From Iphione sp. A-MEVVRFRX5 (taxonomy: Eukaryota), in contig OZ320313.1 of NCBI GenBank assembly GCA_976226885.1, positions 38,998,001 through 39,062,000 on the forward strand: a DNA stretch of 64,000 nucleotides, read 5' to 3'. A program made the position numbers and the translations under genes. This document shows, one piece after another, positions 25,228-63,882 of this stretch (position 1 is the first letter of the stretch; the number at the start of each line of letters is the position of its first letter). The notes below the pieces were generated by a model. It ran no database searches and had not been told where the DNA came from. It was given only the letters and a program-made list of their open reading frames with translations.

Positions 25228-25339
25228 CTGTCGGAAGCGAAATAGATGTACATGATCAATTACAGAATGGTGACAGCATCAATTTATTCATATGTGACGC
25301 AAAACAATGTTACTCGGTATTGAGATAAAACCACTATAA

Positions 25340-25526
25340 TGTTGCGGGCTCCACTCAGCGGAGCCCGCTGTCGGCGGAGGTTGAGAATTTGGGGCTCCGC
25401 CCGGAGTAGCATTCTGTATATAAGTCGGGCCGGGCGGAGCTTCGTTGTCATTAGTGTCCTGTCTCTTAAGGAATAAACTTCATCAACTGTTATCTTGGAG
25501 TCATGTCTCTTCGATCGGGGCGAACA
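25340..25526 (+). repeat. 5' LTR (187 bp)
   Basis: TGTTGCGGG...GGGCGAACA, with TATATAA at 25417-25423 and AATAAA at 25472-25477. Differs from the 3' LTR at 3 positions. Confidence 0.95.
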
Positions 25527-26756
25527 ATTGGTGGCAGCGGTGGGATACCTGCCCTAGGGGCTGAGGCGGAAGAGGAGGCGGAGGTAGTCAAGCTCCGGGC
25601 GGAGTCGGCGGAGCCCGCCGGGTCAGCGGAGGTCGCCGAAGAGCTGCCGGAGCCCGCCTGGCTCCGCCCGGAACCCGCCACTGACTGGGACGCACAGTCC
25701 ATGGAGGGGAGCCAGCCTCTGGGTAGCGGGGATGCCCAAACAAGAGATGAGGTGGGGCATGGGACTGACGAGGAAGAAAGAGAGCACGGAGCCCCTACCT
25801 CATCCGCCCCACACAGATTCAATGAGGACACTGATGACCACCCTCCTCCAGAGGAAGACGAAGGAGAGGGGGAGCCGACCGACCAGGCAGCTGAACCGCT
25901 TTGGACTAGCTTTGTCCGGGAGTTGAGTTCTGCCCTTCGACCGGAAGGAGGAAGTAAGAAGAGCCTGGTGAAACCTGACACTTACGGTGGGAGTACGCCC
26001 TTGTGGGACTTCCTACAACATTTTGAGCTGATGGCCTTGGCAAACCACTGGGGGACCGGAGAGAAAGCCATCCAGTTAGGCATCACCTTGAGGAAGTCGG
26101 CTCGGGCGGTCCTACGGAGTTCGGGGATCGACGTGGAGAAGCCCCGAGCTTACCAGGAACTGGTGGCCGCCCTCACGGAGAGGTTCCAGTCCAAGCACCA
26201 GACAGATGCATACATCCAGCAACTGAAGGGGCATCGGCAGGGGAAGGCCGAGGCCCTGGCGGACCTTGCAGACGAAATTGAGCAATTGATACAGCTGGCC
26301 TACCCCGAGGCGAAGGGGGCCTGGAAGGACCGGATGTGTCGCGAATACTACGTCGGGGCCCTCAGCAACGAGAAAATTCGGAAGTGGGTGACCCAGGCCC
26401 GAGTGGCAACCTTCCGTGAGGCGTTGTCAGCATCGCAAGTAGCGGAATCTTACTATCAGCACAAGTCCGAAAGGGTTGGACCCAAGCGTGTGCATAAGCT
26501 GGAAGTGGCCACGGGGGAAGCTCCGACCAACAAGCCCACCCCCGGGACCGAGGCTACAGCGGCGGGCTTCGAGCGACTGGAGCTCCTGCTCCAACAGCTA
26601 CTGGCAGGCCAACAAGGGGTGGAGAAGGAGAATCGCCGGCCGAATAACAAGAAATGCTTCAATTGCGGGGAACTCGGGCATTTCAAGCGCAACTGTCCCC
26701 AGCCCTTGAAGGAGCAACCGTCGGGAAACGGGGTGGCGGCCGCCCCTCGCCAGTAG
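25503..26756 (+). CDS. gag: Gag (capsid-like region and CCHC zinc knuckle)
   Basis: 417-aa ORF with KPDTYGG..W.DFLQHFE...N.W and CFNCGELGHFKRNC. The first ATG lies in the LTR; the next in-frame ATG is at 25701. Confidence 0.92.
   Translation: MSLRSGRTIGGSGGIPALGAEAEEEAEVVKLRAESAEPAGSAEVAEELPEPAWLRPEPATDWDAQSMEGSQPLGSGDAQTRDEVGHGTDEEEREHGAPTSSAPHRFNEDTDDHPPPEEDEGEGEPTDQAAEPLWTSFVRELSSALRPEGGSKKSLVKPDTYGGSTPLWDFLQHFELMALANHWGTGEKAIQLGITLRKSARAVLRSSGIDVEKPRAYQELVAALTERFQSKHQTDAYIQQLKGHRQGKAEALADLADEIEQLIQLAYPEAKGAWKDRMCREYYVGALSNEKIRKWVTQARVATFREALSASQVAESYYQHKSERVGPKRVHKLEVATGEAPTNKPTPGTEATAAGFERLELLLQQLLAGQQGVEKENRRPNNKKCFNCGELGHFKRNCPQPLKEQPSGNGVAAAPRQ
25529..25546 (+). promoter_or_regulatory. 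primer-binding site complementary to tRNA-Leu (AAG/TAG type)
   Basis: TGGTGGCAGCGGTGGGAT is the reverse complement of the eukaryotic tRNA-Leu 3' end ATCCCACCGCTGCCA-CCA, and lies 2 nt after the LTR. Confidence 0.88.
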
Positions 26757-29700
26757 AGAGGGCGGCCAGTCCCCGACCCCACTTGGAAGAACATCTCCGG
26801 ATGATTCAGCTGTCCTGTGGGCGGGAAGTCACTCTGGAAGGGGAGAGTGGCCCCACAACGAACATCACGCTACCTAGTGAAATCGATGATCGGATAGTCC
26901 CCTGGTTAGTGGATACCGGAGCGTCGCTGACCCTGCTGTCGGAAGAAGTCGCCGACACCCTGCCGCTCGGAGAATTGGAGCCGACAGTGGGGCGGATTTT
27001 GTGTGCAGACGGGAAACCCCTACGAGTGAAGGGGTGGACGAGGTTGAAGGCGAGTTTCCAAGGGATCGAGCTGGAAGTCAAGGCTTGGGTTGCCCAAATC
27101 GACTGCCCCGCCATCTTGGGGCTGGACACGCTTCGCAAATGGAAAGCACAGGTGGACACGGAGGGGGCCGCACTGCGGGTGCGGGTCCCCGAGGACAACG
27201 GCGCGGGTGGATGCCGGGCAGAGTTGGCGGAAGATTGCCACCTGGACGGGAGGAGCGCGGTGCAGGCCCCCTTGCGATGGGCAGGGCTGGAGACCGACAC
27301 TGGACCTGTGGTGGTGGAAGCCTCCCCCGAGTGGGAGGGTCGCTCGGGGATGCTACTGGCACAGACGGTGTGCCAGGTGGGAAGTCAGTCCGGAGTGGCG
27401 GAGATAACCAACCCTGGCCCCGTGGGGCGTCGACTGAGAAAGGGAACCGTTGTCGGCAGGGTCCAGCGGGTGGATGGGCCGGTGCAGGCCGTTCCGGAGT
27501 GCGAAGAGGTGGCGGACGAGGACGTGGAGCTAGGACCAGCGCTCAGGACCCTGCTAGAGCGCCTACCACCCATGACTACAGATGAGCGGCAAGGGGTCGA
27601 ACAGATGTTGCAGCGTAACGCGCGCTGTTTCCAGGAGGACGGGCAACCACTTGGGCACACTGACACGGTTCAGCATCGGATTGACGTACAAGGACATGCC
27701 CCTATCCAGCAGAGGGTACGCCGCCTTCCCCCGGTGAAGAAAGCGCTGGTACAGCAAGAAGTGGACCGGATGCTGCAGCAGGGGGTACTAGAGGCCTCTA
27801 CCAGCCCGTGGGCGTCTCCCGTGGTTCTGGTCCGGAAGAAGGACCAATCCTGGCGATTTTGCATCGACTACCGTGCCCTTAATCGAGTAACAAAGAAGGA
27901 TGCCTACCCCCTTCCGCGGATTGATGAGACATTGGACGTGTTGGAGGGAGCACGTTTTTTTTCGGCAATCGACCTGGCCAGTGGCTATTGGCAGGTAGGG
28001 GTGAGACCAGAGGATCGAGAGAAGACGGCTGTTTGTACTCCAGGTGGGCTCTACCAGTTCCGGGTCATGCCCTTCGGACTGTGTAATGCGCCCTCCACCT
28101 TCGAGCGGTTGATGGAGGCGGTGCTCCGCGGCCTGGTTGGACAGTCTTGCCTGGTCTACCTGGACGATGTGATCATGATAGGGAGGACGGTAGAAGAAAT
28201 GACCCGCCGACTTGACGAAGTCTTCGGCCGCCTGGGGGAGGCCGGACTTAAAGTAAAGCCGCAGAAGTGTCAGTTGTTCCAGAGGGAGGTGGCCTATCTG
28301 GGGCATCGTGTGTCTGAAGAGGGGGTCCAGCCTGACCCTGAGAAGATCCGGGCCATCCAAGAGTGGCCTCCACCGCGCTGCATCACAGAATTGAGGAGCT
28401 TCATCGGACTGTGCTCCTACTACAGGAGCTTCGTGGAGGGGTTCGCAATGCTGGCGGCCCCTCTGCACGGACTCTTGGAGAAAGGACAGGAGTATCGCTG
28501 GGATACCGAATGTCAGCAGGCGTTTGAACAATTGAAGGGACGGTTGGTGATGGCCCCCGTCTTGGCGTACCCGCGACCGGAGGGACAGCTAGTGCTGGAC
28601 ACCGATGCGTCAGCGGCTGGAATCGGAGCCGTACTGTCACAAGAACAGCAAGGACGGGAGCGGGTGTTGGCCTACGCCAGTCGTAGTCTCGCGCGTCCAG
28701 AGAAGAACTACTGTGTCACCCGGAAAGAACTGTTGGCGGTAGTCTTCGGCCTGCGTAAGTTTCGCTCTTATGTTGGGGGGCGAAAGGTGGTCGTCCGGAC
28801 GGACCATAGTTCATTACGTTGGCTATGCAGCTTCAAGGAACCGGAGGGACAGTTGGCCCGTTGGCTCGAGGAAGTCCACTGTTATGACTTGGAGGTGATA
28901 CACCGCCCGGGAAGAAAGCACGGGAACGCCGATGGCCTTTCGCGAGTCAAGTGCCCCCAGTGTGGACGGGACCCGGAGGAGGATCTGCCGACCCTGGGGC
29001 AAGTCGCTACGGTGTTGGTGGCCCCTACTGCATTGGACTCCCTAGCCCAAGCCCAGAAGGCTGAGCCCGAAGTGGCGGCCCTCATTCAAGCCTGGGAGGC
29101 GGAAGAGCCCCTTCCTGGACTGACTGGTAGTGATTCCCCGGAGGGGAGGTGGCTGAAGAGCGAGTCACGGCGGCTGAAGATGAAAGACAATCTGCTTTGT
29201 CGACGCTGGGAGGCGGAGGACAGAACGCTGTGTTACCAGGCTTACGTGCCCCAGCCATTGAGGTACGACATCTGGCGTGAAGTCCACACGGGAGCGCTGG
29301 GAGGGCATCTCGGCGCCGAGAAGACAGAAGGTGCCCTCCGTCGGAAATATTGCTGGCCAGGACTCCGACGTGATGTGGAACGTTGGGTGAAGGCTTGCCG
29401 TGAGTGCCAGCAGCGACAGGATCCGGCTCGCCGGCACCGGGCTCCCCTTCAGCTTCGGGTGGCTCCGGCCCCGTGGGAGTTCGTAGCCGTGGATGTGTGC
29501 GGACCTTTCCCCGAGACCGAGCGAGGAAACAAGTACATCATTGTGGTGGCGGATCACTTTACGAAGTGGACGGAGGCGTTCCCCACTCCGGAGGTCACGG
29601 CGGCGAAGACAGCAGACGTCCTACTCCGAGAAATCATCTGTCGATACGGCCCCCCCCCGTATTCTTCATTCCGACCAGGGCCGGAACTTCGAGGCGGCAG

Positions 29701-30902
29701 TGATGCGGGAACTCCTACAGATGCTGGGCATTCAACGGTCACGCACAACTCCGTACCATCCCCAGAGTGATGGAGTCATCGAAAGGTTCAACCGCACCCT
29801 CTTAGGAATGTTGGCCAAGGTGGTCCGGGAAGATCAATCCGACTGGGACCTCCGAGTGCCCTTCGTTCTGGCAGCCTACCGGGCTACCCCGCACTGTACC
29901 ACCGGGTTCTCTCCGAACTGGTTAACCTTACAACGCGAGACCACGCTTCCGGTGGAGCTGATGGTGGGCAGCCCCCGAGACGAGCCGCAATCAGCTTCCG
30001 ACTATGCCAAGCAGATTAGGGAGCGCTACATTCAAGGCCACCAGTTAGCCCGGCGCCACCTACAGAAGTCGGCTGAGCATCAGAAGGATTGGTACGATCA
30101 GCGAGTTCGTGAGCAAGAATTCGACGTTGGCGATCAAGTTTGGGTCTACTCACCGATAAAGAAGAAGGGGCGGTCCCCCAAATTGCAAAGTCGCTGGTTA
30201 GGACCGTGGACGATTCAAGCCAGGCTCAGTGCTGTCATCTACCGCATCTCTCGAAACCAGAAGACTCGGGTTGTCCATGCAGATCTGCTAAAGAAAGCGA
30301 TCTCTCCTAGTTCAGAGGAAGAAGAAAGACTCGGGCGAGTGTGTGTCGTCACCCTGATGCCGGACACGGATGCGGCCCCGGGGGGTGCGGGCCAACCTAC
30401 TGTGCCCCCGCCCCGCTGGTACCGCTGTAGGCCTAAGACAACTGGCCAGCCGCCTGTGGTTCCACAGGAGCACCAGGGACAACAGGATGCCCCCGCCCCA
30501 GCAACGCCCTCCAATACGACGGATCCCCCAAGGCTGGGTGGACTTGGTGGCCCGGGAACTCCGTCTCCTGAGCGACCGGACTTGCCAAGTCCTGCTCCAA
30601 TCGCGGGAAGTCGCGGGACGGAAGAGAGGAGAGAAGCCAGGCCCACGCCCAGGGACCTACCATCGGGCATGGCAGAGACTGCGAGGAATCAGGAGGAGGT
30701 TGCAGAGACAGTATGGCGGACGCGCGGTGCAGCACCTGGTGGAGACCCTCTGGAGGAAGATCGGAGAAAGAAGACACCCAGCCTGGGGACGGCGACAGTT
30801 GAAGACGTCGAGCGGAACTCGCCCGGAGCCCGTGGCGGAGCACGCCCTAACGGGGTGGAGCCCGCCCGGAGCTCAGCCTCTGGGCGGGCTCCACCCCGTT
30901 AG
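26654..30902 (+). CDS. pol: Pol (aspartic protease, RT, RNase H, integrase), with one frameshift in integrase
   Basis: Motifs LVDTGAS, YLDD, DTDAS/TDHSSL/NADGLSR, HHCC zinc finger, D-D-E core (VAVDVCGP, HSDQG, IERFN) and GPW. One extra C in the C9 run at 29650-29658 moves the integrase core into the 29493-30902 frame. Confidence 0.93.
26723..26767 (+). promoter_or_regulatory. -1 programmed ribosomal frameshift signal
   Basis: Slippery heptamer G GGA AAC in the correct gag phase, an 8-nt spacer, then hairpin GGCCGCCC-CTC/GCCAGTA loop/GAG-A-GGGCGGCC. Pol is in the -1 frame. Confidence 0.8.
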
Positions 30903-31233
30903 AGATTACACCGCACTCCGCCACCATCCAGCCAATCAGAAGCAGACGCGGGAAGGTTCGACCAATCAGCGACTGGCGGAGCTAGCCCTGAAGGGATATA
31001 AGCTGGCGGCCCTAGAGGAGGCGATTCATTCCGTCCATCGCCGCGCTCTGCCCACCCAGAGATACTTCCCGAATATTTCCCGCCCGGAATTGAGTGCGTC
31101 TGCGGAGGTCTCCGCGGAGTTCGACCGGAGTTCGTCCAAGTCGCTGCCGGAGCTCGCAGACAGGCAGAGCTCGCTACACGAAGCCAGCGGAGCTCACCCG
31201 GCGGAGCTTGCCCTACCGGAATCCGAGAAGACC

Positions 31234-33750
31234 ATGACATCCAGAGGGAGAGCCCAGTACTGCCAGTACTGTGGCTACATTTCTGACAAGCCGGGCAATT
31301 TCGATAGGCACATGTTAACCCATGGGAAGCAGGGGTTCGTCCGCCGCTGTCCGGTGCCCCGTTGCCAGGGGGCACACTTCGGCCGCCGGGATGACTTCCG
31401 GCGGCACCTGGAGAACAAACACAAGCAAGACGCCGACAACCCCATCGTCCTGGGCCAGGACGTAGACCTGGAGTTTATAGACCTGGTCAGTGGCCAGAAC
31501 GTGCCTGTCCCAGAGTGTTGCCGAGAGGAGTACCAGCGGCAGTTGAAGGTGGAGGCGTACGAGCGGGAGAAGGAAGCAGCCATGATCCAGGGGGAGGCCC
31601 CCCCACCGCGACCCAAGTTAGCTCGGAAGCCCCCCCGGGGAAGGAAGGCGTCAGCTGCCGCAGGCCGCCCTCCTCCTCCCCCCCGGGATGACGACGACCC
31701 AGAGGAGGACGAGGATGTGAAGGAAGAGACGGGGGCTACGGAGGGGCCCTGCCTGCGCCCCCGAGTCGGGCGTGGGGGACAAGTCTCCTCCACCGTGGCC
31801 ACACCAGGGGCAGGCCGCCCACCAGTCACCCCGGGTTCTTCGGCCTCGGTAGACATTCCGCTGTTCGGGCTCGACGTGTCGCCAGAGGTTCCAGAGGTGC
31901 GGATCGGCCGCAAGGTCCACAAGTCTACGGGAAAAGCGGCTAACTGAAGTACATCAGCAGGAGAGACGCCCGCCGTTCCTGCACCGGCAAGCCCGGCCGC
32001 ACCGGGGTCCGCCTCTGCCGCCTCCACGCCTGGGGCTGCTCCGGTGCGCAGCCTTCCCCCCACCAGATCCCGACCCGCCGAGTCGTCTGGGGAGTGGCCA
32101 ACCCCCTCCACCCCTGGGAAGGACTTGGACTTCCAGGCCATGCGGGACAAGGCCGATCGAAGGAAGAGGAGGTAGCAGCCACAGACCTCTCCCGTCACCC
32201 TGGCTAGTCTCCCCTCACCTGCAAAGAAGGTCGCCAACATTACGTCCTCCACGATGTCGCCGCTACACCGGGCGGTGATTGCCGCGGGATTTCGGGACCG
32301 CACCCCCCAGTCCACTCCCACTTCCGCTAGTTCGTCCTACAGTGAGGCGGCACAGGAGCTGGACGCGCGACTAGGAGAAGAGTGGGAGAACGTAGAGAGG
32401 GAGGAGCGGCCCACGGACGTGGTGGTGATCGGATCGGATCCGGAGTCAGAGGACGAAACCCAGGTGGAAGACGCTACCGCCGCCTCTGAGCCGTTGGCCG
32501 AGCAGCTCAGCGCGAGCCCGGGGACCCCCTGTGGGCGCATCCGCTACGCCCGGCTGGATGTGGCAGGGGGGGCCCCGGCGGACGATACAGCAGCTGAGGA
32601 TGTTCCCTTGTCCGAGGGGGAAGCCGCCCTCACCCTGGCGGAGCTCGTGGGGGAAGAGCTCCGCCCGGAGCCCCCGGCGACAGAGACCGAACCTGGCGGA
32701 GCTCCCCCCGAGCCGGCTGAGCCCGCCCCTACCCAGCCGCCGGAGACGACTGTTCGGCTCTCAGAGCCTGGCCGGGCTCCACCAACGGGGCACCAACCAG
32801 AGGCACCTGAGCAGCCGCTGACGATGCCGGAGCCCGATACCAGGGTTGAGCCTACCCCCCCGGCACTCCCGGGACGGCGCACTGAAGCAGGGGCAGGGGA
32901 GACCCTGCCCAAGGAGATCCCCCCGGCACTCCCGGGACGGCGAGGGGAGGAGCCGGCACCTACCTTGCCGGACCCTCCCGAGGAGATCCCCCCGGTGCTT
33001 CCGTGACGGCGCGTAGCAGACGGGCCAGACGCTCCGGCCCCTACCGAGGAACTCCCCCCGGGGCCCCCGGGACGTCGGATTGAGGCAGAGCCCGACGCTG
33101 GGGCTCCCCCTCAGGATATCCCCCCGGCACTCCCGGGACGGCGGACGGATGAAGGACCCGGGGACGAGGCCCAAGGCCCTGCTCTCCCCCTGGCACTCCC
33201 GGGATGGCGACCACCGGCGACCGGAGGCGGAACTGGCGCACCAGCCCAACCCCTGGCTACCAGTACCCCCGCGGGGGAGCCCCCGGGAGCAGCCCAACCG
33301 CGGATAGGGCCGGCCCCGGTGGGCCCCGACCGCCGGACTGAAGTGCGGCCTGGAGCCCGTAGGCAGCTCCTGCTGGACCCTGCCACGGTGGCTGTGACCC
33401 GCTGGGCGCATGCCCGGGTTGTCACCCCCAAGACCTCACCCCCTGCCGGTTGGCGCATTGTTACGGCGGAGGGGACTGCTACCGTGATCCCTCAGAGGGA
33501 CCATACTCGCGCCAGATTCCGGCAGGGGGTGCAGTTGCTGTTACGGACGGCCGACCCTGAAGACACTGAGGAGCCGGGGCACTGGCTTCAGGACAGAGGG
33601 ATTGCTGATCCCAGTCTGGACGTCTCTCAGGTCTCCTCAGAACTGTCCTCTCGCTTGTTGGAGCCTGAACGAGTGGAGTTGTCGTTGGAAGAAGAGTTCC
33701 AGGTGGTGGCCAGGCCAGTACAGGCCCCGGCGGCAACTGCGGAGCGCTGA
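31234..33750 (+). pseudogene. ORF3 of the Gypsy element: two C2H2 zinc fingers, acidic/Pro-rich region, PPALPGRR repeats; three in-frame stops
   Basis: The listed ORFs 30370-31947, 32254-33006 and 33319-33750 share one frame, broken only by TGA 31945, TAG 32173 and TGA 33004. ACCATG at 31234. CQYC-x12-HMLTH and CPVPRC-x13-HLENKH. Confidence 0.8.
32857..33210 (+). repeat. six coding repeats of CCCCCGGCACTCCCGGGACGGCG (PPALPGRR), period 63-69 bp
   Basis: Copies start at 32857, 32920, 32989, 33055, 33121 and 33187. Confidence 0.9.
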
Positions 33751-33767: not shown

Positions 33768-33901
33768 TTGGTCAGTACAGACCTTTTTGTTCAGTAAGGC
33801 TTCCAGCAGTAAGAAGATTGTCAACGGATTTGTTGTTTGGTCAGTACAGACCTTTTTGTTCAAGTAAGGTTTTCAGCAGTAAGAAGATAGTCAACGGATT
33901 T
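33768..33901 (+). repeat. ~69-bp tandem duplication in the retrotransposon 3' UTR
   Basis: TTGGTCAGTACAGACCTTTTTGTTCA...GTCAACGGATTT x2, with a few differences. Confidence 0.9.
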
Positions 33902-33946
33902 TATAGGTTTATTCAATTAGCAGTGGCTCAGGGACTGAGCCTTCTT

Positions 33947-33958
33947 GGGCGGGGGTAA
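33947..33958 (+). promoter_or_regulatory. polypurine tract
   Basis: GGGCGGGGGTAA immediately before an LTR start (TGTTGTGGGCTCCGC at 33959). Confidence 0.75.
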
Positions 33959-33972
33959 TGTTGTGGGCTCCG

Positions 33973-34049
33973 CAGAATGGTGACAGCATCAATTTATTCA
34001 TATGTGACGCAAAACAATGTTACTCGGTATTGAGATAAAACCACTATAA
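33973..34049 (+). repeat. exact copy of the 77-bp host flank 25263-25339, lying between a truncated LTR start and the full 3' LTR
   Basis: CAGAATGGTGACAGC...AAACCACTATAA is identical at both places. Confidence 0.95.
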
Positions 34050-34236
34050 TGTTGCGGGCTCCGCTCAGCGGAGCCTGCTGTCGGCGGAGGTTGAGAATTT
34101 TGGGCTCCGCCCGGAGTAGCATTCTGTATATAAGTCGGGCCGGGCGGAGCTTCGTTGTCATTAGTGTCCTGTCTCTTAAGGAATAAACTTCATCAACTGT
34201 TATCTTGGAGTCATGTCTCTTCGATCGGGGCGAACA
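34050..34236 (+). repeat. 3' LTR (187 bp)
   Basis: Matches the 5' LTR except at 34063, 34076 and 34101. Followed by the TSD ATAA. Confidence 0.95.
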
Positions 34237-34531: not shown

Positions 34532-34682
34532 CAGGCCCGTAGCCAAGGGGGTATCGTCCAATACCCCCCATAGACATATATGACTATAGGCTTTGATAGG
34601 GATAAAAAAAAATTAGTTCCATCCCTGGAGTATTGGGGGTATCGTCCAATACCCCCCAGAAAATTTCCTGGCAATGGGCCTG
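34532..34682. mobile_element. MITE family A, copy 2
   Basis: CAGGCCCGTAGCCAAGG...CCTGGCAATGGGCCTG, with TATACA on both flanks and two internal GGGGGTAT-CGTCCA-ATACCCCC hairpins. Confidence 0.8.
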
Positions 34683-35099
34683 TATACATAACTTACAGTT
34701 CATAAAGCTATATATTGCTTGTTAATAAGGTAAGAGATTGTATATCGGCTTGTAAATCCTGAGTTACAGGGTGTACACATAAACTGTCCTACACATCATG
34801 TGATCAGTATTCTTCGCTACCATAAGAGGAGTGGTAGCGGACAAACTAAGATTTGATTGCTCTGGAGTTTGTCTGCACATTCAGAAAATATGTGTATAAT
34901 AATAGTTAATAGTAGCTATTTGTGGACGTTTTTACAGTTAGTAGTAGTCGCAGGGGAGACCATATTCCTTTAGTCCAGAAGTGGTCCACTAAGTGGGAGT
35001 TGATTGTAGATAAGTATGTCAGAGGAGTCATGAACTCAGAGTTTGTAACCAATCAACAATTTGACATTACAAAGTACCTGCATTGTTGGCCTTCTGTCT

Positions 35100-38053: not shown

Positions 38054-38210
38054 CATGCCCGTTGCCAAGGGGGTATCGGGGGTATCGTTCGATACCCCCA
38101 GAGCAATTAATATCTATTGGCCTTTATATGGTATAGAAAAAATAGTTCCACCCCTGTGGTATCAGGGGTATCGCCCGATACCCCCAGAAAACTTCCTGGC
38201 TACGGGCCTG
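38054..38210. mobile_element. MITE family A, copy 3
   Basis: CATGCCCGTTGCCAAGG...CCTGGCTACGGGCCTG, with CATCA on both flanks and the same GGGGGTATCG..CGATACCCCC hairpins. Confidence 0.8.
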
Positions 38211-39000: not shown

Positions 39001-39728
39001 GAATTGAAAGAATGAATGAGTGAATGAACTAAGGTAATGCAGCTTTGCAAATAAGCTGCTGATGGCACCAGCAAAACAGAAGTTCCATCTGAATTTGCAC
39101 GGTAAAACCCGTCTTTTTAGGGACGACAATTGGACTGAATAAGAGTATATCGTATCCTCTGTTCAAAAAACCTTATGTTAGAACTAAACTTTGACCGTAC
39201 AATGTACCACCATTCCACCATTTTCTCTAGAGTTCTGCTGATTAAACCTTAACACAGACCGTTGTATGCAAAACCTGCCACAAAGAGAAAATGTTTGAAC
39301 CTAAACACAGGACATTTTGCAAATGACCTGGAATGGGTACAGTTGCTTAAAAATTACATGTCGTTTAAATTTCAAGTTATATAGTGATCTCGTTCCATAC
39401 AAGCCTAGTGATTATTCTAGGAGGCAGATAGTCCTGATCATGTTGTGTGGTTAACAAGTAGGCGTAGGTTTGTTGCTTACTGCCAGTGAGGCCAAAGAAC
39501 CTAGTCATGCCATACACCATACCATATATAGAATAAGGCTTCTATCACGAGGCTTTATCATTATCGTAAACTGTGTTCATGTCATTCAAAGCTAACCCCA
39601 GCGTGTGTTAAGTGAAACAACGATCAAGAATGCCTAACCTATACGTTTGCTTTGTATTGTTTACCTCTCTTGGAAATCATATCCAATACAACTATTGCTG
39701 TGTTTAATACTGTCTCGGGTTATGTTCT

Positions 39729-42700
39729 TTGTTTTACTCTCATGTAAGGGGTATAATGGGGTGGAATGGTCTCGGTGTGGTGGTAGTGGGGGCTTACCGT
39801 GATTATACAATCTTACTCTTATTATTAGTGATGGGCTTTCTTCGAATACTAAACTTCAACGTCAGGAGTGTGCGTAAGAAGATGGTAGGGCTCACTGAGT
39901 TACTTTTAGCCGAGAAGATAGATATTGCCATCATTTTTGAAACTTGGCTGAATGCTACCTACAATCAAGGGGAAATTGAAATTGATGGTTATCAGTCATT
40001 CAGGCAAGATAGGGAAGGAAGGGAAGGACAGAGGGCAGGGGGATTGTTGGTATATGTGAGGGAGGGTATTGACGTGCAAGGGGTAACTAATCAGAACAGG
40101 GAGGGGAGTTTATGCAAGATCATGCGTGTTAAACTAAAGGTAGGGAAGCGGCGTCCTCACTATATGGCAGCCGTCTACCGTCCCCCTCATGACAAGCTAA
40201 AGGATTCTGCTGGTGCCTTGGAGCTAGTGCTGAAGGATGTGGCCAAAATGAAGTGCTGTGATGTGACTATAGCGGGAGACCTGAACTATGACTATATTAT
40301 GAAGGGGAGAGTCAGTCAATGCCTAACTGACCTTTTTTGCAGCTACAGCCTTACGCAACTCGTACAAGCTCCAACAATGGTAGAGAGTGATCACTACTTA
40401 GATCATATATGGATAAACTACCAAGGCCGCTCAAGTGTTCATACGCCTCTATGTTTTATGAGTGACCACCTGCCAGTGGTACTCCAGGTCAAGAAGGGAG
40501 CACCAAAGATCAGCTATGCAACGATCGAAATCCGAAGATGGGGGGGCGGCCAATCCTGAAGTACTTGACACACGCTTGCGCCATGAGGGATTATCTATAG
40601 TTGGAGAGGATCCTGACACTACATGGAAGAAGTTTGAAGAGCGGACAAGAGCGCTTGTGGATGAGTTATGCCCAGTCAAGAAGGTTAAGCTCAACAGGGA
40701 GATAGAATGCCCTGCGTTGGATGACAAAACCCTCGAACTGATCGTGGACAGGAAATACTTCTATAAGAAGTGGAGGACAGAAGGGTGTGTTGATTCAAAA
40801 TGAATCTTCAGGTTTCTAGACAAGAAGGTGAAGGCAGTGATCAGGATGAATCACAGGAACTTCTGGATGGACAAGGTGGCTGTGGCTGGTACAGACTCGG
40901 GAAAACTCTGGGGAGTGCTCAACACTGTCCTGGGTCGTGGAGTGGGTAAGGAAACTCTGCCCAGTCGTGTGAATGCAGATAGCAGCGGGAAGACGTCACT
41001 AGCGGCTGAGTTTAACAATCACTTTGTGGATGAAGTTGCGCGGCTAGCAAACAGCCCATCAATACGAAGATGGGTTGCACCAGGACGGCAGCAAACGTTT
41101 AATATTGCCGCACCAAGCCCGATAAGGCTTCGCCCCATCGTCCAGAAACAACGTGTACGCAAGTCATCAGGGTTAGTAGGGATACCAACACACATACTGA
41201 AACCTCTGCTACTGCTCCAAACAGACTTCCTAGCTGGCCTATTTGGTAAGATCATTGAAACTGGCCATTACCCTGACACCTGGAAGGTAGCCAGAGTGAC
41301 TCCCATATTCAAGAAGGGGGACAGAGAGCTACTGTCTAATTATAGACCGGTGTCAATCTTACCACTTCCTGGCAAGATCTTTGAAGCGTGGTATGTAGGG
41401 ATGTTGATGAAAATCCTCAAAGAGAAAAACTTCATCAACAAGCGGCAACACGGATTTCGAGCGGGGAGAAGTACGGAGACTACCATGGTAAGCCTCATTG
41501 TTCACGCGCAGGCAATGTTGAACTCTGGACGGTATTGCAGTCTCCTAGCCTTCGACTTAAAGAAGGCCTTTGATCTTGCGCCCTCAGCGGGGGTATTACA
41601 CCGACTGGAGCAGGCAGGCGCGAGCATCGCCATCAGGAGACTTGTGGCATGCTACTTCAACAACAGGCAGCAATTTGTGTGCTGTCACGGTGTGGACTCT
41701 CACCTACGTGAGGTCCAACACGGCGTCCTCCAGGGATCCGTGTTCGGCCCAAGTGCCTTCTCGCTTGTCATTGATGAGATCGTAGGGCAACTACCGACCA
41801 ACAGCGAAGTTACGCTGTATGCGGACGACATGACCATTGTTGTGTCGGCAACAGACCTGCTCCATTTACGGGTGGCATCACAGAAGACCATTGATGTGGT
41901 CTCCGTATGGTGCAAACAAACCGGCCTCAGGTTAAGCGAAGGCAAATGCTCCTATATGGTGCTTGGCAAGGCTGCCGACACCCCGCTGGACCTATGTATA
42001 GGTGAATCCAAGTTGGAGCTGGTAACAAAGGCGCGTCTATTTGGATTCATGGTCAATTCAAGGATGAACTTCAAGGAACAGATCAAGGACATAAAAGCGA
42101 AGATGTGGGCAGCTGCCATCAGCCTAGGCAGAGCTAAACGTCTTCTTGATCTGCACATTCGTGCTAGACTCTTCAAGGCGTTGGTCCTTCCGCACCTTTT
42201 TTATGGTGCAGCTGTGCTGTATGGCTCCTCTCTGTCAGACAGGAGGAAACTCCAGGTACATCTAAATAGATGCATGTGGGTCAGCCTGCAAGTAAACATG
42301 CAGGCATCCACCAAGTGTCTTGCAGAAAAATTTGGCATCGGAAGGGTCACAGACATCATTGAAAACTGGGCTATTTCCGCAATACATCGACTTGTACATC
42401 TTGGACTGCTCCCCCTTGCCTCTAAGTCCAGGACTAGGGATGGTGGCAGTTTGCGAGCAATGGTCCCGAGACCAAAAAGCAGGAAATTCTTGACCAGTCC
42501 ATGTTATGGGGCTGTGTCTACATGGAACAAGCTGCCGAAAGCACTAAGAGAGGCCAAGGTGCCTAGAATAGGCACCTGGCTGCGGGATCAAGCCACGGAT
42601 CACTAGAGGACAGGCATGCTGCGCAGATCCGTCGATACTTACTGACTCACATTGTGTGATCTCTTATTCTCGGAGCTGGGTGGACTACACTGCAGGTATA

Positions 42701-61499: not shown

Positions 61500-62650
61500 C
61501 TTGTGCATATAGGAAAAATGTCTGATGGTATATGTCATGTTCATAGCAGACAAAATTTTGTGAGACCTGGTTTCTTTTTGTGGGTTTTTTTTTCATGTTG
61601 TGTGATTTTGACTCTCTGGCCAAACTGTACTGGTTGGTCACCCAATGTATGTGTATATGGGAAACATGTGTGATGGGGTTTGTCATGTTCAGAGCTACCA
61701 ACATTTTTTTTTCATGTTAGGATGGTGTGTGCCTTTGTCTCTGTGGCCAACCTGTACTGGTTGGTCACCCACACTGTGTGCACATGGCCAATATGTATGG
61801 GGGGGGGTTCCTGTTCAGGGCCAACAATTTTTTTTTTTTTTTCATGTTAGGATGGTGTGTGCTTTTGTCTCTGTGGCCAACCTGTACTGGTTGGTCACCC
61901 ACTGTGTGTGCATATGGCAAATATGTATGGGGGGGGGGGTTCCTGTTCAGGGCCAACAATTTTTTTTTTTTTTTCATGTTAGGATGGTGTGTGCCTTTGT
62001 CTCTGTGGCCAACCTGTACTGGTTGGTCACCCACACTGTGTGCACATGGCCAATATGTATGGGGGGGGGTTCCTGTTCAGGGCCAACAATTTTTTTTTTT
62101 TTTTCATGTTAGGATGGTGTGTGCTTTTGTCTCTCTGGCCAACCTGTACTGGTTGGTCACCCACTGTGTGTGCATATGGCAAATATGTATGGGGGGGGGG
62201 TTCCTGTTCAGGGCCAACAATTTTTTTTTTTTTTTCATGTTAGGATGGTGTGTGCTTTTGTCTCTCTGGCCAAGCTGTACTGGTTGGTCACCCACTGTGT
62301 TTTATGCAAGTGTATATAGACAACATATATCAGGATTTGTGTTATGTACATAGCAACCAACTGCTTTTAGGAACAGGTTAGGGTTTTTCTTCCTGTTAGG
62401 GTAGTGAGTGTATGTTGTCTCTGTGGCCAAACTGTACTGGGTGGTCACCCACTGTGTGTGCATAGGGCAAGCATGTAATAGGGAGGGGGATGTCCTTTTC
62501 AGGTCCAACAATTATTTTTTTTTTCATGTATGGATGGTGTATGTTTATTGTCTCTATGGCCAAGCTGTACTGGTTGGTCAAACACAATGGGTGCATATGG
62601 CAAACATGTATGAAGGGTTTTGTCATGTTCAGAGCTACCTACAGGTTATT
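61500..62650. repeat. ~130-bp tandem repeat array with A/B alternation
   Basis: The GATGGTGTGTGC anchor lies at 61721, 61851, 61983, 62113 and 62244, with diverged units on both sides. Each unit has a long G run and a long T run. Confidence 0.95.
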
Positions 62651-62744
62651 AAACCTTTTTTTTTAAATTTCATGTCAGGGCACTTTATGTGCACATGAAT
62701 ATTTCACTACTGCAGTGTCTGACTGTGGATTTTAATTTTTCTAG

Positions 62745-63585: not shown

Positions 63586-63882
63586 GTGCTGGTGCCCTGA
63601 ACGGGGTATATGTTGCCCCTCCTCCCGCGAATGGGCAGCTGGTGCAGAACCAACAGCAGCAGCAGAACCAACAGCAGCAGCAGAACCAACAGCAGCAGCA
63701 GAACCAACAGCACCAGCAGAACCAACAGCAGCAGCAGAACCAACAGCACCAGCAGAACCAACAGCACCAGCAGAACCAACAGCACCAGCAGAACCAACAG
63801 CAGCAGCTGCAGGAACAGGAGGCAGAGGAGAGTGAAGAGAACGAGGAGGAGGAGGACGACCAACAGGAGGCTGCCAGCAATG
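63586..63882 (+). CDS. internal exon with a Q/N-rich repeat and acidic tract; the gene continues beyond the window
   Basis: Acceptor TTTCTTTCTTTCTGAAG and donor ATG|GTAAGT, phase 1/1. Confidence 0.78.
63645..63806 (+). repeat. nine 18-bp coding units CAGAACCAACAGCA(G/C)CAG = QNQQ(Q/H)Q
   Basis: Direct observation. Confidence 0.95.

Follow-up and report, generated by a model that had tools for sequence, protein, structure and literature searches.

Organization of the element

The window, by which we mean the whole stretch of 64,000 nucleotides analysed here, contains a retrotransposon whose features are collected in Table 1. The Pfam matches in its pol follow the order PR-RT-RH-IN, which assigns the element to Ty3/Gypsy. 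Its LTRs, of 187 bp, have TG...CA ends, and it has a primer-binding site (PBS) and a polypurine tract (PPT). A 4-bp target duplication was found in 30 of the 31 copies examined. At the gag/pol overlap, the slippery heptamer GGGAAAC was retained in 37 of 40 copies, with a hairpin on its 3' side (z -3.3). Because the heptamer is conserved at the overlap and the hairpin follows it, a Gag-Pol-tail fusion made by -1 frameshifting is likely.

At 33959-34049 of the window copy, the polypurine tract is followed by 15 nt of the LTR start and by a 77-bp copy of the 5' host flank, after which comes the full LTR, an arrangement that may reflect either conversion or duplication after insertion, or an assembly artefact. 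With the flank copy placed before the 3' LTR, the LTR date of the window copy is therefore unreliable. Among 22 copies measured (L021-L059), the distances from the stop codon to the LTR group at about 210, 283 and 356 nt.

Elsewhere in the window, 39708-42606 is a LINE-like element whose frames, judged by eye from the translation, resemble an endonuclease and a reverse transcriptase. Two short related repeats with internal palindromic ends (34547-34686 and 38072-38209) are MITE-like, a tandem array of about 130 bp occupies 61542-62652, and a CAG/AAC-rich repeat coding Gln/Asn lies at 63600-63851.

Table 1. Features of the Ty3/Gypsy element, in window positions
Feature	Position	Strand	Remarks
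5' LTR	25340..25526	+	187 bp, TG...CA; TATA at about 25417-25424; four GCGGAG
Primer-binding site	25529..25546	+	identical word after the LTR in all eight families; presumably tRNA-Leu-like
Leader/gag start	25529..25700	+	five further GCGGAG
gag with CCHC zinc knuckle	25503..26756	+	Pfam
Candidate -1 frameshift signal	26723..26790	+	GGGAAAC slippery heptamer and hairpin
pol core, PR-RT-RH-IN(GPY/SH3)	26648..30320	+	window copy frameshifted near 29,650 (integrase core)
Basic linker domain in pol frame	30469..30739	+	predicted helical; families 1-3; frameshift just upstream in window copy
Candidate internal promoter inside pol linker	30791..31233	+	CCAAT x2, TATA and initiator words; eight GCGGAG
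Met of zinc-finger protein	31234..31236	+	first ATG after internal TATA
C2H2 finger 1	31261..31323	+	helix KPGNFDR (N3, R6: predicts GAN)
C2H2 finger 2	31348..31422	+	helix RRDDFRR (R-1, D2, D3, R6: predicts GCG)
Post-finger segment	31423..31600	+	conserved; charged helix at its end; dN/dS 0.07
Disordered region	31601..33384	+	acidic, basic, Ser/Thr/Pro and Pro/Glu repeat tracts
63-69-nt repeats in disordered region	32853-33230	+	
C-terminal domain	33385..33750	+	conserved, no known family; dN/dS 0.05; W-A-x2-R...P-x2-W...W...E
3' UTR tandem repeat	33784..33901	+	unit about 70-73 nt; copy number differs among elements
Polypurine tract and 15-nt stub of LTR start	33942..33973	+	
77-bp copy of 5' host flank (25263-25339)	33973..34049	+	before the 3' LTR
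3' LTR	34050..34236	+	three mismatches to the 5' LTR; 4-bp target duplication ATAA

The zinc-finger frame as the C-terminal part of pol

The original prediction had described the stretch at 31234-33750 as a single interrupted frame and as a third gene separate from pol. The stretch is indeed one frame of 838 codons closed by a stop, and it is interrupted by stop codons at positions 238, 314 and 591 (31945, 32173 and 33004). We compared the window copy with the 39 other best-matching copies among the 40 scored in the genome (1.18 Gb, 89 contigs). The three stops are private to the window copy, as none of the 39 others has a stop at the same codon, and the tail is open from its Met to its end in 27 of the 39 (hand count). 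The separate third gene did not survive this comparison: in 26 of the 39 other copies the sequence runs from the GPY motif to finger 1 without a stop or frameshift, and a free-standing ORF3 was rejected on these copies. From protease to the final stop, the frame is open in nine of the 39 copies, with a length of 2,363-2,413 codons (hand counts). The frames appear separated in the window because the window copy is frameshifted at about 29,650, in the integrase core, and at about 30,460, in the linker. Read across the copies, the zinc-finger ORF is the last 838 codons of pol, and the whole finger tail is an extension of pol by about 1,180 codons. The case also warns that what looks like an 'ORF3' in a single decayed element may be the last part of a pol of 2,400 codons.

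The tail protein is probably also made alone, from the internal promoter described below. The linker carries 16 breaks in 300 codons versus 58 in 2,014 codons elsewhere, about twice the rate (hand tally; Poisson p 0.016), and the breaks fall partly at recurring spots. This excess of breaks in the linker tells against our reading and hints that the fusion of the tail to pol is less important than the parts.

The zinc fingers and the C-terminal domain

The predicted finger 1 (C-x2-C-x12-H-x3-H) was recovered by Pfam as zf-H2C2_5 with an E value of 6e-7 and 29.4 bits (cut-off 27). Finger 2 (C-x4-C-x13-H-x4-H) had no match in Pfam alone, but its Cys and His ligands are invariant in an alignment of eight rows covering seven families. 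The pair has the ligands, the hydrophobic core and the conserved residues at -1, 3 and 6 of a classical C2H2 tandem, joined by a short linker of eight residues that is not TGEKP-like. From position -1 to 6, the helix of finger 2 is RRDDFRR in 35 of 40 copies and that of finger 1 is KPGNFDR in 39 of 40. Across the eight rows, which are 22-55% identical to the window, finger 2 always has R-1, D3 and R6, and finger 1 always has R6; the three finger 2 residues are retained in all eight families, family 7 being seen outside the eight-row alignment. A fold search with the finger pair returned two-finger DNA-binding domains such as Tramtrack as the closest, weakly (E 0.12), and a PDB search gave generic finger matches only (best E 0.001). 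When the finger region was compared with database proteins of 1,470-4,195 residues, none of 19 candidates scored, which is weak evidence.

The tail had been predicted to have no transmembrane helix and not to be env-like, and this was borne out by a top 19-residue Kyte-Doolittle mean of 0.76 in a natural copy. An env identity was rejected on this absence of a hydrophobic helix, and no env Pfam match was found in the window element. Pfam also returned no chromodomain match in the post-integrase pieces of the window.

The end of the tail is a conserved domain of about 120 residues and of no known family, which this clade adds. Its W, A, R, P, W, W and E columns are invariant in the eight-row alignment covering seven families, and it had no match in Pfam, PDB or the Atlas. 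An AlphaFold model built from five rows has low confidence (pLDDT 61). The best VIA hits of this model, phage tail-completion proteins, reached a Z of 7.4 with an rmsd of 3.4 over 99 residues, which is below the level that the tool regards as meaningful, and BFVD gave no match at E 0.001.

Purifying selection, composition and distribution of the tail

Between the two subfamilies, dN/dS is 0.05 for the fingers and the C-terminal domain, 0.07 for the post-finger segment, 0.05 for the reverse transcriptase (RT) and 0.06 for the integrase, while the disordered parts range from 0.19 to 0.71. These are pairwise values between the subfamilies, from 21 x 18 copies for the tail region, with misaligned parts of two copies masked. 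In the fingers, variants shared by at least three copies comprise 12 synonymous to one replacement, and singletons are neutral (0.96). The tail, with its fingers, its disordered acidic/proline-rich region and its C-terminal domain, is under purifying selection. The check set out in the original prediction, an intact tail with dN/dS below 1 in other copies, thus came out in its favour, with fingers and C-terminal domain constrained as strongly as the RT. Its observation on composition also stands: GC content and CpG o/e are 0.68 and 0.73 in the tail, 0.61 and 0.73 in gag, 0.60 and 0.83 in the pol core, and 0.42 and 0.58 in the host DNA of the window.

Genome searches with the tail and with database pols recovered seven further families. 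The eight families of the host genome form one clade with support 1.0, all with the tail, in a FastTree tree of 70 rows without named references that was built on the integrase only and has about 190 residues for families 7 and 8. Integrase identity to family 1 ranges from 53% to 77%, and the nearest database RT is 62% identical. The frame runs from GPY through the fingers in 14 of 20 elements and, in a separate set of six family-8 elements, in three; the in-frame fusion was found in seven of eight families, the sole family-7 copy being broken. In alignments of seven families, the finger pair, the post-finger segment and the C-terminal domain are common to the families. Counted from the GPY motif, the tail has 1,100-1,570 residues. 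That eight families share it although their integrases are as little as 53% identical agrees, together with the dN/dS values, with the long residence in the element that had been proposed.

Four-fold sites are close to saturation already for the two most similar families (163 of 448 identical). The family of the window copy is young, with identical LTRs in 15 of the 31 copies for which both LTRs were found. Within family 3, some subfamilies (L081/L101, L082/L102 and L092/L112) have near-identical LTRs and integrases and differ considerably in promoter-leader and tail, which suggests that the tail module is exchanged or changes fast. Another family-3 element (L080/L100) lies within a long satellite array of about 87 bp. 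At the family-8 locus L132:1121 (oriented), a second primer-binding site lies about 480 nt upstream of the element, which suggests that this element inserted into the 5' end of a related one.

The reading that the tail is a recently captured host gene or a neutral passenger is largely refuted by these data, and we consider it very improbable. C2H2 fingers are common host domains and the origin of the tail is untraced, as such a reading would have it; the tail, however, has a dN/dS of 0.05 and is common to eight families with near-saturated four-fold sites. Among the 150 scored genome matches to the tail, each one retrieved proved to be a copy of a retrotransposon or a short degraded remnant, and the PDB matches were to generic fingers.

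The GCGGAG word and the predicted finger target

Zinc fingers bind DNA antiparallel, and the helix code of the two fingers therefore predicts the target GCG-GAN. An engineering table gives RSDDLQR for GCG and RSDNLAR for GAG, and N3 and R6 are common to all GAN helices listed there (PMC3607563, Table 2). We noticed the word GCGGAG in the window before the finger code was applied, and the hypothesis that the fingers read the element's own word was recorded before the LTRs of families 2-8 were seen. The counts of GCGGAG in the LTR (4), the leader (5) and around the internal TATA (8) compare with shuffle means of 0.14-0.56 and were reached by 0-1 of 300 shuffles; for the leader, the mean is 0.45 and none of 300 shuffles reached five. 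As background, the word occurs three times in 3.5 kb of pol core and 0.036 times per kb of host DNA. The word is found on either side of each of the two TATA boxes and also over the start sites and leaders.

When no word was chosen beforehand, GCGGAG ranked first among the 6-mers of the LTRs in families 1, 2, 4 and 5. The LTRs of families 1-8 contain 4, 4, 2, 7, 9, 0, 0 and 0 copies, respectively; residue 3 of the finger 1 helix is Asn in families 1-6 and Arg in families 7 and 8. The highest counts are those of families 4 and 5, whose helices are near-textbook (RKDNLRR and RKDNLKR in finger 1, RWEDLKR and RKDDLRR in finger 2). In families 1-2, position -1 of finger 1 is K or H, and the last base is not fixed by it. 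In family 8, the LTR contains five GCGGGG, and seven more precede the fingers. Since families 7 and 8 are sisters on the tree, the Asn-to-Arg switch counts as one event. Some families fit less well: family 6 has N3 and R6, yet no GCGGAG in its LTR, where other words occur, and in the LTR of family 3, which has Asn3, GCGGGG (4) outnumbers GCGGAG (2). In families 1-5 and 8, one and the same word forms clusters both in the LTR and in the pre-finger region. As control LTRs from finger-less Gypsy families, two candidates among nine elements were considered, and no LTR pair was found. From the helix code and the clusters, finger 2 would read GCG and finger 1 GA(G), binding the clusters.

A candidate internal promoter in the pol linker

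Upstream of the finger Met, CCAATCAG occurs at 30932 and 30962, followed by TATAAG at 30997 and an initiator-like word at about 31023. None of these words, the two CCAAT, the TATA and the initiator, varies among the 40 copies, and in all 40 the finger Met is the first ATG past the internal TATA, about 212 nt from the presumed start. Family 2 has the same spacing of these elements in 10 of 11 copies. We infer that the CCAAT-CCAAT-TATA-initiator stretch is a candidate internal promoter for the finger protein. In families 1-5, a TATA lies upstream of a Met that is 8-12 codons ahead of finger 1; in families 6, 7 and 8, no TATA was found within 520-600 nt upstream of the fingers.

Third codon positions of residues shared by families 1 and 2 are identical in 21 of 25 cases in the promoter stretch versus 365 of 771 in the pol core (Fisher p 3e-4), and this identity therefore points to constraint on the promoter stretch at the DNA level. 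The promoter-bearing part of the linker has a dN/dS of 0.43 between the two subfamilies. The linker domain upstream of it (linker 1) has a dN/dS of 0.16, and its helices are predicted at pLDDT 75-82. Shared variants fall mostly on pol-frame third positions in linker 1 (28 of 47) and evenly in the promoter part (18 of 47). The possibility that the linker is read in another frame was countered by the third-position excess in linker 1. When the linker domain was searched with HMMER against 1.84 billion representatives, there were two matches, P0123 and P0124. P0123 is a true fragment (E 1e-20) from outside the host genome and holds the linker domain and the promoter-coded residues. P0124 was rejected as a relative, the match being a repeat artefact.

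A proposed regulatory circuit and its alternatives

LTR retrotransposons are normally thought to depend on transcription factors of the host, whose C2H2 proteins are known to repress them. We propose, with a probability of about 0.55, that the tail is a DNA-binding regulator which the element encodes to act on its LTR and internal promoter, and which would work like the foamy virus Tas although unrelated to it. That the finger protein might regulate the LTR had been suggested originally; the dN/dS values, the eight families and the motif match make this plausible, but the free-standing ORF3 of that suggestion is replaced by a C-terminal part of pol. In the proposed circuit, basal transcription from the internal promoter would supply the finger protein alone. 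Finger 2 (GCG) and finger 1 (GA(G)) would bind the word clusters in both promoters, and the acidic/proline-rich region would activate, so that a positive feedback switches on the full-length RNA, as Tas does in foamy viruses. The form fused to Gag-Pol by -1 frameshifting, perhaps cut by the protease after integrase, would bring the protein into the particle, where the tail could act on new cDNA or a fresh insertion. A beta-strand word after integrase resembles words at other pol junctions and may, speculatively, be the protease site. That two fingers read only about 6 bp counts against the proposal.

Should a Gypsy clade indeed supply a C2H2 factor directed at its LTR, the host-factor picture would be reversed, and Tas/Tat-type regulation would have a counterpart among retrotransposons. 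We found no Gypsy-encoded C2H2 protein aimed at its own LTR described in the literature searched; Repbase, GyDB and most subscription journals lay outside the search, and the families may be catalogued there. More tentatively, and at somewhat less than even odds, an env-less Gypsy clade may have independently evolved a circuit of the complex-retrovirus type, with its own C2H2 factor, an internal promoter in pol together with a particle-packaged Gag-Pol tail, helix and word diverging together by family, co-resident families with partly separate feedback loops, and a host genome seeded with sites for a transposon-supplied factor. The eight co-resident families would offer a ready specificity-swap test.

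Other explanations of the same features appear unlikely, in decreasing order of probability as discussed here. Among them, we give most weight to the clusters being host GC-box sites of the Sp/KLF/Egr type while the tail does something else, e.g. tethers integrase to chromatin like the chromodomain of chromoviruses. The word GGGCGGAG is GC-box-like, GG precedes 17 of 35 GCGGAG sites, and family 2 has five full matches to an Sp1 consensus. Family 1, however, has no full Sp1 match, and GCGGAG outnumbers GCGGGG by 35 to 1 in the four regulatory regions of families 1-2, whereas the published Sp1 site is GGGGCGGGG (PMC4219604). The word also varies among families that share one host. Tethering would suit a tail that is in frame with integrase in seven of eight families, and in three database relatives a chromodomain occupies the corresponding position, but the insertion sites are AT-rich, with ATAT-like 4-bp duplications in 30 of 31 copies, and only three GCGGAG occur in 24.5 kb of flanks from 31 copies. 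On this last count, insertion targeting by the finger word was itself rejected.

It is somewhat less probable that the fingers bind their own word to repress or to shield, either as negative feedback on copy number or as a cover of CpG against host methylation and silencing. The sites flank both TATA boxes and overlie starts and leaders, where a bound protein can block initiation, and every site contains a CpG, in an element whose CpG o/e is 0.73-0.83 versus 0.58 in the host. Long acidic and proline-rich tracts are, however, more typical of activators, and the families are abundant as well as young, given that the LTRs are identical in 15 of 31 copies. A little less probable again is a tail that works only in the particle, binding the LTR ends of new cDNA and aiding assembly of the integration complex or nuclear entry, with the internal promoter being incidental. 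This would account for an in-frame fusion that persists over linkers of about 110 to about 480 residues, for selection on linker 1 in the pol frame (dN/dS 0.16) and for the basic clusters in the tail; it leaves unexplained the DNA-level conservation of the CCAAT, TATA and initiator words, the conserved Met and the word clusters far from the DNA ends, and it sits poorly with the roughly doubled rate of breaks in the linker.

Comparison with known systems

Taken together, the sequence features indicate that this is a Ty3/Gypsy element and not an env-bearing element, a chromovirus or a spumavirus. Spumaretrovirinae have an env gene and make Pol from a spliced RNA; this Gypsy element is outside that group, without env and with a gag/pol overlap that contains a conserved slippery site. 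Foamy virus Tas is described as a 3' accessory DNA-binding protein with an internal promoter that acts on that promoter and on the LTR (PMC13220597). The anatomy of the Gypsy element mirrors this combination of accessory gene and internal promoter of Tas/Bel1. Unlike Tas/Bel1, the Gypsy tail is a classical C2H2 pair, in frame with pol, in an element without env. The function of Tas is proven, whereas that of the Gypsy tail is read from sequence, and the likeness would be one of working, not of sequence.

The Tor elements of Oikopleura dioica are Gypsy-like and express a third gene from an internal promoter, which lies within pol for Tor3b (PMC4402516). They share with our element a third gene or tail with an internal promoter (a candidate one in the Gypsy element). 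The third gene of Tor encodes a membrane Env glycoprotein, whereas the Gypsy tail is a zinc-finger protein with no hydrophobic helix, and the signal peptide and transmembrane anchor that mark env-bearing elements (errantiviruses and Tor) are absent from it.

In 11 of 120 database pol relatives, the pol frame likewise includes a Met, one or more zinc fingers, an acidic stretch and a C-terminal domain (ENA/Logan: P0014, P0015, P0030, P0031, P0034, P0035, P0046, P0053, P0072, P0085 and P0095). In these 11, the Met and zinc fingers lie directly behind the usual integrase end. They differ from our families in forming a separate clade (support 1.0 for each clade, with the backbone between them not resolved), in their helices, in a much shorter tail and in a C-terminal domain with no detectable relation to that of the Gypsy tail. 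The zinc-finger tail of the database clade is possibly an independent gain.

Chromoviruses and other Gypsy elements with a chromodomain resemble our element in having an extra domain fused in frame behind GPY/SH3, as was seen with a chromodomain in three of the 120 database relatives. They differ in that the Gypsy tail is without a chromodomain, has its own start and gives no sign of targeting by the finger word. The three relatives, P0010, P0028 and P0044, are Gypsy pols with a C-terminal chromodomain and are placed among the non-finger relatives in the tree.
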